Origin: a virus
Lineage: Duplodnaviria; Heunggongvirae; Uroviricota; Caudoviricetes
Direction: 5' to 3' (one strand)
Length of the DNA: 48,145 nucleotides
Virus record (IMG/VR): IMGVR_UViG_2526164669_000027
Positions 27,807-28,853 of the stretch are shown here, piece after piece. The position numbers and the translations under genes were made by a program. How positions within the stretch are numbered: the first letter of the stretch is position 1; every line of letters begins with the position of its first letter. Under the pieces are notes generated by a model. The model did not search any database. It had not been told where the DNA came from and saw only the letters and a program-made list of their open reading frames with translations.

Positions 27807-28853
27807 TTAAAAATCTTTCGTTATTTCTCTGACCGTCTGATTAAAACGCTCCTCTTCCAGTTCCACGCCAATCGCCCTGCGTCCCAGCGACAGTGCCGCT
27901 TTTATTGTCGACCCCGACCCCATAAAAAAATCTGCGACCAAATCGCCTGGACGGCTGCTGGCAGTAATTATCTGACGCAACATATCCGCCGGTTTTTCAC
28001 AGGGATGCTTACCCGGATAATACTGCACGGGCTTGTGCGTCCAGACATCCGTATAAGGAACGACAGCCGATACGGAAAAATAACGCCGCAGTGATTTGTA
28101 TTCCTCCAGCAGGCTGGCATATTGCCGGTTCAGTTCGCTGTATGTGCTGACCAGCTGGTGGTGTGGCTGCTCCAGTTCACCGCGCTGGTGTTTTTCTGCC
28201 GCAACACGCGCAAACAACGCCTGCAGTTTACTGTAATCGGCCTCATTCGGTAACTGCCACTGACTGGTACCAAACCAGTGCGAAGCCATGTTTTTCTTTC
28301 CGGTGGCTTCTGCTATCTGTTTTGACGTTATCCCCAGTGATTCGCGCGCATCACGAAAGTAAGAAATCAGCGGGGCCATGACATACTGCTTAAGCTCGCG
28401 CCCCTTTGCTGCATAACCGTCACTTTTGAGCTGGTATGGCCCCTGATAATGTTCGGCAAACAGAATGCGCTCTGTTGCCGGGAAATATGCCCGTAAACTT
28501 TCCTTATTGCACCCGTTCCAGCGTCCGGACGGCTTCGCCCAGATAATGTGGTTCAGCACATTAAAACGTTCACGCATCATGAGTTCGGTGTCAGATGCCA
28601 GGCGATGACCACAGAACAGGTAAAGACTTCCGGCAGGCTTCAGTACCCGCCAGAACTGTGCAAGACACTGGTCCAGCCATTTCAGGTAATCATCGTCCCC
28701 CTTCCACTGGTTATCCCAGCCCTCGGGCTTCACTTTAAAGTATGGCGGGTCTGTGACTATCAGATCGACAGAGTTTTCCGGTAAGGTCCGGATAAATTCC
28801 AGGCAATCAGCGTTGATTAACTCACAACTGGATATTTTTACAGTATTAGCCAT
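27807..28853 (-). CDS. DNA methyltransferase (N6-adenine/N4-cytosine type), orphan
   Basis: DPPY motif near the N-terminus (..LIVTDPPYF..) and FxGxG AdoMet motif near the C-terminus (..DFFMGSGST..); no adjacent restriction gene. Confidence 0.85.
   Translation of the reverse strand: MANTVKISSCELINADCLEFIRTLPENSVDLIVTDPPYFKVKPEGWDNQWKGDDDYLKWLDQCLAQFWRVLKPAGSLYLFCGHRLASDTELMMRERFNVLNHIIWAKPSGRWNGCNKESLRAYFPATERILFAEHYQGPYQLKSDGYAAKGRELKQYVMAPLISYFRDARESLGITSKQIAEATGKKNMASHWFGTSQWQLPNEADYSKLQALFARVAAEKHQRGELEQPHHQLVSTYSELNRQYASLLEEYKSLRRYFSVSAVVPYTDVWTHKPVQYYPGKHPCEKPADMLRQIITASSRPGDLVADFFMGSGSTIKAALSLGRRAIGVELEEERFNQTVREITKDF

Follow-up and report, generated by a model that had tools for sequence, protein, structure and literature searches.

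A window of 48,145 nucleotides from the IMG/VR virus record IMGVR_UViG_2526164669_000027 encodes a DNA methyltransferase (MTase) that an earlier note, made from the letters alone, had described as an orphan enzyme of a phage late operon with an unknown target. The locus raises the question of what such an enzyme modifies and how it is kept under control. The reading frame proposed in that note proved exact (minus strand, 348 aa; Table 1), and the DPPY and FxGxG motifs from which it had recognised a circularly permuted N6A/N4C MTase are both intact (DPPY at residues 35-38, FMGSG at residues 310-314). The match to the beta-class family far exceeds chance: residues 29-340 align with Pfam PF01555 (N6_N4_Mtase) at E=2.2e-44 and 152.5 bits, against a cutoff of 26.7 bits, and the protein is also recovered by the PHROG DNA-MTase families (phrog_67, E=1e-105) and by the PADLOC model MTase_II PDLC03265 (E=8e-152). 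Motif IV (DPPY) stands N-terminal to motif I (FxGxG), with an insert of about 125 aa that contains the target-recognition domain (TRD) between them, and this is the order of a beta-class, circularly permuted enzyme. The nearest solved structures by sequence (8urk/9c3u, M.RsrI, CcrM and M.MboIIA) are beta-class adenine or N4-cytosine MTases; they cover both halves of the Rossmann domain and leave the central insert unmatched, and the limits of the domains within this insert were taken from PMC11551740. The protein is full length (348 aa, compared with 349-352 aa in its relatives) and aligns without gaps up to residue 344.

Table 1. Features of the MTase locus and its surroundings (positions in the window)
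Feature	Position	Strand	Basis or remark
DnaB-type helicase	31516-32916	-	first in minus-strand order
Antiterminator Q, 121 aa	30897..31262	-	PF06530, E=2e-51
DUF4236 gene	29542-30729	opposite strand	between Q and MTase module
Putative late promoter PR' (-35 TTTACA, 16 nt, -10 TATGCT)	29380..29407	-	promoter scan, 9/12 match
Short hairpin and T7 run, possible tR'-like early terminator, about 45 nt past the putative late start	29332..29344	-	weak fold alone
ORF65, 65-aa stand-alone winged-helix protein	29004..29201	-	phrog_331; PGAP 'TrmB family'/hypothetical, WP_000917767.1
GC hairpin and T-run, terminator-like, overlapping the ORF65 stop, directly 5' of the leader	29000..29017	-	hairpin in 54/56 loci
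Conserved structured RNA leader (5' UTR): closing stem P0, 12-bp hairpin P1, P2, P3	28872..28995	-	covariance model R1, 102.9 bits, E=1e-25
Conserved translation-initiation block GCUUAYUGAUCUAUG	28854..28871	-	alignment A4
MTase CDS, M.EcoGII-family beta-class N6-adenine methyltransferase	27807..28853	-	ATG start, 348 aa, PF01555
Catalytic motif IV DPPY, aa 35-38	28740..28751	-	kept in 79/80 other-species homologues
Central insert, aa 135-259: HTH-type TRD and charged two-helix linker	28077..28451	-	homology to published M.EcoGII model
SAM-binding motif I FMGSG, aa 310-314	27912..27926	-	FxGxG kept in 80/80 homologues
tRNA-Gly(UCC), 3' of MTase	27517..27589	-	ARAGORN; Rfam tRNA, 51.6 bits
Lysis cassette (two holins and GH108 endolysin), end of the Q-to-lysis interval	25833..27040	-	PF16931, PF05449, PF05838/PF09374
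Holins	26648-27040 and 26380-26712	-	PF16931, PF05449
GH108 endolysin	25833-26378	-	PF05838/PF09374

Tblastn against phage records recovered relatives annotated as 'DNA methylase' in phiP27 (92% identity), in Stx2a, Stx2c and Stx2d phages (86-87%) and in 1720a-02 (86%), the full value for phiP27 L24 being 91.9%. The MTase of 1720a-02 has been named as very similar to M.EcoGII, a 349-aa beta-class enzyme (Murray et al. 2018, PMC5778455), and the window MTase is itself 85.5% identical to M.EcoGII over the full length (295/345 residues). The reference sequences of M.EcoGII and its ancestors were read by machine from the supplement of the SUPREM paper (PMC11551740) and contain evident OCR errors. 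The copy of M.EcoGII is 93% identical to the 1720a-02 MTase, and the two one-residue gaps in its alignment with the window MTase fall at sites where it departs from the 1720a-02 protein. Like M.EcoGII and M.EcoGI from the E. coli O104:H4 C227-11 prophages (PMC5778455), the window MTase has DPPY, then an HTH TRD with a charged linker, then FxGxG, in about 349 aa; it is likewise prophage-borne and orphan, and homologues of those enzymes are also encoded between Q and the lysis genes. It differs from M.EcoGII at about 50 positions, which cluster in the TRD/linker and C-terminal tail (identical residues: 128/134 in the N-terminal catalytic part, 99/125 in the TRD/linker, 69/87 in the C-terminal part), and also in residing in a phiP27-like, stx-negative yecE prophage, where it adjoins tRNA-Gly. 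The charged linker itself (aa 200-262) is present with no gaps relative to M.EcoGII.

The ancestral proteins Anc291 and Anc284/SUPREM are both active and retain non-site-specific methylation (PMC11551740). Placed by pairwise identity and not by a tree, the window MTase is 87.9% identical to Anc291 and 73.2% to Anc284/SUPREM, the corresponding values for M.EcoGII being 84.3% and 70.3%. Since Anc291 is nearer to the window MTase than to M.EcoGII, our enzyme lies inside the range of sequences found experimentally to be non-specific. The window MTase has every sequence-level hallmark of the M.EcoGII family and, judged by these, appears to be an intact M.EcoGII orthologue, a gene of known kind with little new in the enzyme itself; the family has already been characterised, is sold as a reagent (EcoGII) and is annotated in thousands of genomes. 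The earlier note was right about the class of the MTase and missed its membership of the M.EcoGII family; the target is predicted to be any adenine, with no motif, so that a methylome or REBASE follow-up should seek global m6A after induction and not a recognition sequence.

The gene is widespread. Megablast found it in 1,890 of 5,426 complete E. coli genomes (about 35%), in up to five copies, and a scan of one genome per species recovered full-length homologues with 65-87% identity across the Enterobacterales, from Escherichia albertii to Xenorhabdus, Photorhabdus, Yersinia and Hafnia. With 65-98% identity in more than 200 loci and the motifs kept in 79-80 of 80 homologues, the family is under clear purifying selection.

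[quoted passage not shown] On the minus strand the genes run in the order helicase, Q, ORF65, MTase, tRNA-Gly, holins, endolysin and terminase Nu1, and the same order is found in phiP27, in 1720a-02 and in two E. coli chromosomes. The slot of the MTase between Q and the holin/endolysin genes is also that seen in many Stx2 phages, and tRNA-Gly(UCC) sits where Stx phages have tRNAs and stx. The phages phiP27, Stx2a/2c/2d and 1720a-02 share the module as a whole, that is the leader region, ORF65 (L23) and an MTase 86-92% identical to ours (L24 in phiP27), followed by tRNA genes. Downstream, phiP27 and the Stx phages carry stx along with ileZ/argO tRNAs (in phiP27, stx2e and two tRNAs come after the MTase), whereas the window prophage has tRNA-Gly only; upstream, phiP27 has an ORF of the GIY-YIG nuclease family between Q and the module, where the window has DUF4236 on the opposite strand. 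The gene at this upstream position varies among relatives (DUF4236 in the window; ompC, a GIY-YIG-family ORF or a hypothetical gene elsewhere), so that the MTase has no fixed partner there, and the cargo 3' of the MTase is equally variable (Stx, TerB or none). The DUF4236 protein had no match in the PDB or among defence systems.

A Type II restriction-modification system was considered for the locus and rejected, the neighbours being ORF65, DUF4236, Q, tRNA-Gly and the holins, with no cognate endonuclease among them. Searches with Pfam, PHROG and PADLOC found no nuclease or restriction family in the roughly 35 other ORFs of the window, where the MTase is the sole PADLOC match; the MTase is thus an orphan, in line with the claim of the earlier note that no restriction enzyme adjoins it. 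The replication, Q, lysis and packaging genes of the prophage are intact. Its induction might be impaired by an IS3-family element at 37.9-39.2 kb, in the early region.

The late-operon position given in the earlier note agrees with the arrangement of the predicted features, the MTase gene lying 3' of the PF06530 Q and of a promoter-like element and 5' of the tRNA, the two holins and the GH108 endolysin; a late operon is the best reading of this synteny and of the consensus elements. The promoter and terminator assignments upstream of the MTase are consensus-level predictions. When the Q-to-MTase intervals of the window, phiP27 and 1720a-02 were aligned, the block common to all three started exactly at a -10-like hexamer (TATGCT, TATCCT and TATGTT, respectively). 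Upstream of this hexamer the sequences are dissimilar, and the Q proteins of the three have diverged too (46-49% identity); such a conserved block preceded by divergence alongside the Q alleles is as expected of a late promoter specific to the Q allele. The hairpin past the putative PR' start is no more stable than shuffled sequence (z=-0.2), and its role as a terminator is weakly supported for that reason. The sequence of the second hairpin, directly before the leader, covaries among 56 homologous loci, and the quality of its T-run varies.

Between the putative promoter and the MTase lies the small gene ORF65. It is a real gene: its product is identical over 63 residues in the three phages, while third codon positions account for 13 of the 16 variable DNA columns (p=1e-4). 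In 52 of 76 species loci a homologue, in some of them diverged to 37-50% identity, lies 100-200 bp upstream of the MTase in the same orientation, and, among the matches listed, 102 of 112 phage contigs have ORF65 immediately before the MTase; about a third of the species loci have the MTase without it. The family, phrog_331, is a PHROG of unknown function. Pfam winged-helix matches to the homologues are weak but consistent (DprA_WH in 18/27, plus TrmB, MarR_2 and HTH_20). A comparable pair is known from Stx2a prophages, in which M.EcoPA8orf6770P, annotated as a DNA adenine MTase, is co-transcribed with a winged-helix partner, PNB-2, immediately upstream (PMC10810198). Unlike the window MTase, that enzyme is of the MT-A70 type, is encoded towards the left (early) end of its phage and is expressed in the lysogen, and the two have no sequence relation. 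That the window MTase is the rRNA MTase which Gong et al. described from an Stx prophage was considered and rejected, the latter being an MT-A70-family enzyme from the early-left region.

What the enzyme does can be read from published work on close homologues, the source of all that is said here of non-specific m6A activity, lysogen silence and toxicity; the identity, intactness, position, orphan status and distribution of the MTase were obtained in the present analysis. M.EcoGI and M.EcoGII methylate the adenines of dsDNA and ssDNA regardless of the surrounding sequence and act more weakly on RNA; with M.EcoGII as much as 99% of dA can be modified, which makes the DNA resistant to many restriction enzymes (PMC5778455). 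Neither shows activity or expression in the lysogen (PMC5778455), and constitutive expression of M.EcoGII-family enzymes harms the cell (PMC5778455, PMC12707154). Beta-class enzymes are thought to work as dimers, and M.EcoGII elutes as one (PMC11551740). We consider it highly probable that the window MTase is an M.EcoGII orthologue expressed late under Q, placing non-specific m6A on phage DNA against restriction. For Q-dependent late expression in this prophage, and for the anti-restriction benefit, this is what we infer; the protection of progeny DNA from host restriction, also put forward in the earlier note, is the accepted reading for the family (PMC5778455, PMC12707154).

In the lysogen the MTase would be silent, transcription from the late promoter ending at the hairpin/T-run sites unless RNA polymerase has been modified by Q; such silence is consistent with the predicted position of the gene behind Q, PR' and two such sites. 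After induction, the MTase would be made alongside the lysis and morphogenesis proteins and, probably as a homodimer, would use SAM to convert a large fraction of the adenines in replicating phage DNA to m6A in any context. Packaged m6A genomes would then resist many type I, II and III restriction systems in the next host, at the predictable cost of sensitivity to m6A-dependent type IV enzymes. The literature searched holds no direct measurement of hypermethylated virion DNA or of better plating on restricting hosts for such phages. Expression of the MTase is probably also controlled post-transcriptionally by the structured 5' leader, possibly with ORF65.

Other readings of the enzyme have to be weighed against this one. 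The recognition domain may have diverged so far that the orphan MTase reads a defined motif and either protects against particular systems or plays a regulatory role. Identity to M.EcoGII is indeed lowest in the TRD/linker (79%, as against 95% in the N-terminal catalytic part), the 14% of residues that differ lie mostly there, so that a changed preference would be compatible with the sequence, and M.PflMI, which is the nearest relative with site specificity, shares the overall predicted fold (PMC11551740). However, M.PflMI is only about 27% identical to M.EcoGII and is without the charged linker (PMC11551740), which the window MTase retains ungapped, and M.EcoGI, M.EcoGII and ancestors down to about 70% identity, a bracket that includes the window MTase, are all non-specific. 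Non-specific activity is also predicted by the REBASE-based annotation of homologues about 93% similar (PMC6602927), and we regard a sequence-specific enzyme as improbable.

It is similarly improbable, in our estimate, that RNA or host DNA is the main substrate, the MTase, perhaps redirected by ORF65, methylating rRNA, tRNA or mRNA late in infection and thereby reprogramming translation or induction. This idea draws on the action of M.EcoGII on RNA and DNA:RNA hybrids in vitro (PMC5778455, PMC11551740), on the conversion of an MT-A70-family prophage MTase into a 16S rRNA MTase by binding of the small winged-helix protein PNB-2 (PMC10810198), and on the retention of winged-helix ORF65 beside the MTase across the Enterobacterales. 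Yet the rRNA MTase comes from a different family and a different phage region, M.EcoGII needs no partner for full activity on DNA and has an RNA activity that is called residual (PMC11551740), and the MTase occurs without ORF65 in the loci noted above. Least likely of all, to the point of being very hard to credit, is that the prophage is decaying and the MTase gene, for all its intact appearance, is carried along inertly, never expressed and with no function at present. The interruption of the early region by the IS3-family element and the inactivity of M.EcoGI and M.EcoGII in lysogens (PMC5778455) could be cited for it, but the ORF is full length with all its motifs, the family is under purifying selection, the replication, Q, lysis and packaging genes remain intact, and silence in the lysogen is what would be expected of a late gene.

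Within the locus, only the leader and its linkage with ORF65 merit follow-up. The MTase start is not preceded by a GGAGG Shine-Dalgarno sequence but by the conserved initiation block of Table 1, and the stretch of approximately 150 nt that separates ORF65 from the MTase ATG is conserved in different genera, also in loci that lack ORF65, with no consistent reading frame. Alignment with MAFFT and folding with RNAalifold gave a multi-stem structure in which 9 of 19 pairs show compensatory changes. A covariance model (R1) built from the leader core and searched in 85 sources matched once in each of 57; every match is on the strand of the MTase and stops about 19 nt short of the ATG, and the 0.9 Mb searched contain no other. 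In the leaders aligned to R1, 96.4% of cells are paired, compared with 27-43% when partners are slid, and compensatory changes affect 13 pairs and 59 cells, where sliding gives 3-7 pairs and 7-11 cells; the observed values were reached in none of 500 shuffles. The R1 alignment is fitted to the model, and the unfitted MAFFT and RNAalifold result, which agrees with it, is the fairer witness. Most of the covariation is in P1 (9 of 12 pairs), together with one P2 pair (C-G in 29, U-A in 11, A-U in 10 and U-G in 5); stems P0 and P3 are nearly invariant. At least 120 copies of the leader came to light when IMG/VR was scanned for an exact pattern, and among the matches listed an M.EcoGII-type gene starts 51-53 nt past the matched core in 112 of 114 informative loci. 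The RNA structure and its linkage to the gene are real, and the leader is absent from Rfam.

Over positions 27400-29500 only the tRNA scores against Rfam 15, and the best matches of the leader alone, in a search to E<=10, have E values of 4-9, far below the gathering scores. A riboswitch or ribozyme of known class was considered and rejected, no such Rfam family matching even at E<=10. AgvB (RF02702), AsxR (RF02703) and a Pas sRNA were also considered and dismissed, being sRNAs of 51-84 nt sited elsewhere; the Rfam models of the first two do not match the leader. An upstream ORF coupled to MTase translation was rejected as well: its AUG is missing in 10 of 57 leaders, its length ranges from 1 to 34 codons and its stops are scattered.

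The initiation block can pair with an invariant block of the leader, GAUCACAAGC, the AGC of which doubles as the 3' strand of P2, a pairing whose basis includes the MFE fold of the window sequence. This alternative helix is paired in 93.8% of cells, compared with 13-41% when slid, and has a single compensatory pair, in three sequences. It shows almost no covariation, and that it hides the start region of the MTase is a hypothesis with which the pairing is compatible. We conjecture that the leader is cis-regulatory, possibly a switch that conceals the initiation region and possibly one on which ORF65 acts.

Such an arrangement is reminiscent of phage Mu, where a toxic, broad-spectrum, adenine-modifying late function (com-mom) is placed under several layers of control, which include a small gene upstream and a structured mRNA around the site where translation begins (summarised in PMC3299994). 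The enzymes and regulators are nevertheless different: Mom has an acyltransferase fold and makes N6-carbamoylmethyl-adenine, and Com is a zinc-finger protein while ORF65 is a winged helix, so that a Com-like role of ORF65 or the leader is an analogy only. Similar in function are Hia5, Hin1523 and Nma1821 of Mu-like prophages (Drozdz et al. 2012, PMC3299994), late genes for near-non-specific m6A that are silent in the lysogen, protect DNA from many restriction enzymes and have a small com-homologue regulator gene upstream (PMC3299994). They are Dam-related, have DPPY near residue 194 and belong to transposable Mu-like phages, and their resemblance to the window MTase is functional only; in arrangement the window MTase is homologous neither to them nor to Mom.

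Neither the structured leader nor the linkage with ORF65 is described in Rfam or in the literature open to search. That the leader (a three-way junction with a possible alternative helix) and ORF65 form a new module which gates a toxic MTase in the manner of com-mom, or else that ORF65 retargets the MTase, is a tentative proposal to which we give a little less than an even chance. If it is true, the module would be the lambdoid counterpart of Mu com-mom and could be what keeps a lethal, non-specific MTase off before lysis; the leader would also be a new entry for RNA family databases. In many Stx2 phages the MTase lies directly upstream of stx, so its control would also shape the late transcript of the Shiga toxin.

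A minor observation concerns the 5' edge of the leader, where an invariant TGT..AAT block can be read as an extended -10 promoter. The version of this block in the window fits poorly, and the reading conflicts with stem P0, for which there is one compensatory case.

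The gene for the M.EcoGII-family adenine methyltransferase (MTase) follows a conserved RNA leader that folds into a three-way junction plus a hairpin, with strong covariation support, and that matches no family in Rfam 15. Among the matches listed from Enterobacterales genomes and IMG/VR phage contigs, almost all copies of the leader precede M.EcoGII-family genes. In the Xenorhabdus and Photorhabdus loci (L052-L084), ORF65 and the P1 hairpin are retained upstream of the MTase; the leader is shorter, the central ~60 nt being missing, and it is not detected by R1, the covariance model of the leader core. 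Because of this shorter form and its escape from R1, the leader RNA of these genera may represent a second variant.

A GGAGG Shine-Dalgarno sequence is lacking before the AUG of the MTase. An invariant block ahead of the AUG, GCUUAYUGAUC, is complementary to an invariant leader block, GAUCACAAGC, and stem P2 of the leader competes with this pairing; a translational switch at the MTase start is therefore possible. We further infer that the UGAUC before the AUG is complementary to GAUCA in the 3' tail of 16S rRNA. Purifying selection acts on ORF65, which across genera is retained just ahead of the MTase gene in roughly 70-90% of loci and ends at a stop codon situated within a hairpin/T-run. A role for its product as MTase regulator or partner is possible.

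Features of the prophage around the MTase and toward the integrase end
Feature	Position	Strand	Remarks
Three terminator-like hairpins	27066-27232	-	After tRNA-Gly(UCC), before holin gene
tRNA-Gly(UCC)	27517-27589	-	
MTase initiation block with leader block	28854-28871 with 28925-28934	-	Mutually complementary
MTase RNA leader, conserved	28872-28995 (flanks 28854-29017)	-	~120 nt; adjoins MTase start on 5' side
ORF65	29004-29201	-	65-aa stand-alone winged-helix protein (phrog_331)
Putative PR', then hairpin and T7 run	29325-29407	-	
DUF4236 gene	29542-30729	+	395 aa; phrog_17982; between Q and putative late promoter
Two adjoining ORFs	35308-35979 and 35961-37487	-	Each with Phage_ASH and Phage_pRha domains
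IS3-family insertion element	~37925-39243	-	Early region
IS3-family element orfB	37973-38860	-	
IS3-family element orfA	38860-39186	-	
SPFH/Band 7 family protein gene	43833-44660	+	Toward integrase end of prophage

The hairpin and T7 run lie ~45 nt downstream of the putative Q-dependent late promoter (PR'), an arrangement which, by analogy with lambda 6S RNA or StxS, would yield a short terminated leader RNA. From the -10 onward, the sequence is conserved between the window, phiP27 and 1720a-02 (a phage with a related MTase module), and the upstream part varies together with the allele of the antiterminator gene Q. The DUF4236 gene has a low GC content (40-42%) and is on the strand opposite to Q and putative PR'. 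In related prophages its place is filled by ompC, an ORF of the GIY-YIG nuclease family or a hypothetical gene; since the occupant differs in this way, this slot ahead of PR' is a site for cargo ('moron') genes. In phiP27 (L002), L22 (4208-5437) encodes a GIY-YIG nuclease-family protein between Q and the ORF65-MTase module, on the same strand; this gene is absent from the window.

Downstream of the MTase, the tRNA-Gly(UCC) occupies the slot of ileZ/argN/argO and stx in Stx phages. The prophage is phiP27-like and lacks stx.

In the early region, the IS3-family element, which is multicopy in E. coli (median of 4 places per genome), is adjoined by anti-repressor-like fragments. The element might exert a polar effect on transcription of the early genes, and hence on Q and MTase expression. 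The Phage_ASH/Phage_pRha ORF pair appears to be an Ash/Rha-type regulator duplicated in tandem, the larger copy having an N-terminal extension of ~300 aa without annotation. The SPFH/Band 7 protein has no PADLOC match, and its gene neighbours DUF5406 and DUF4222 genes.
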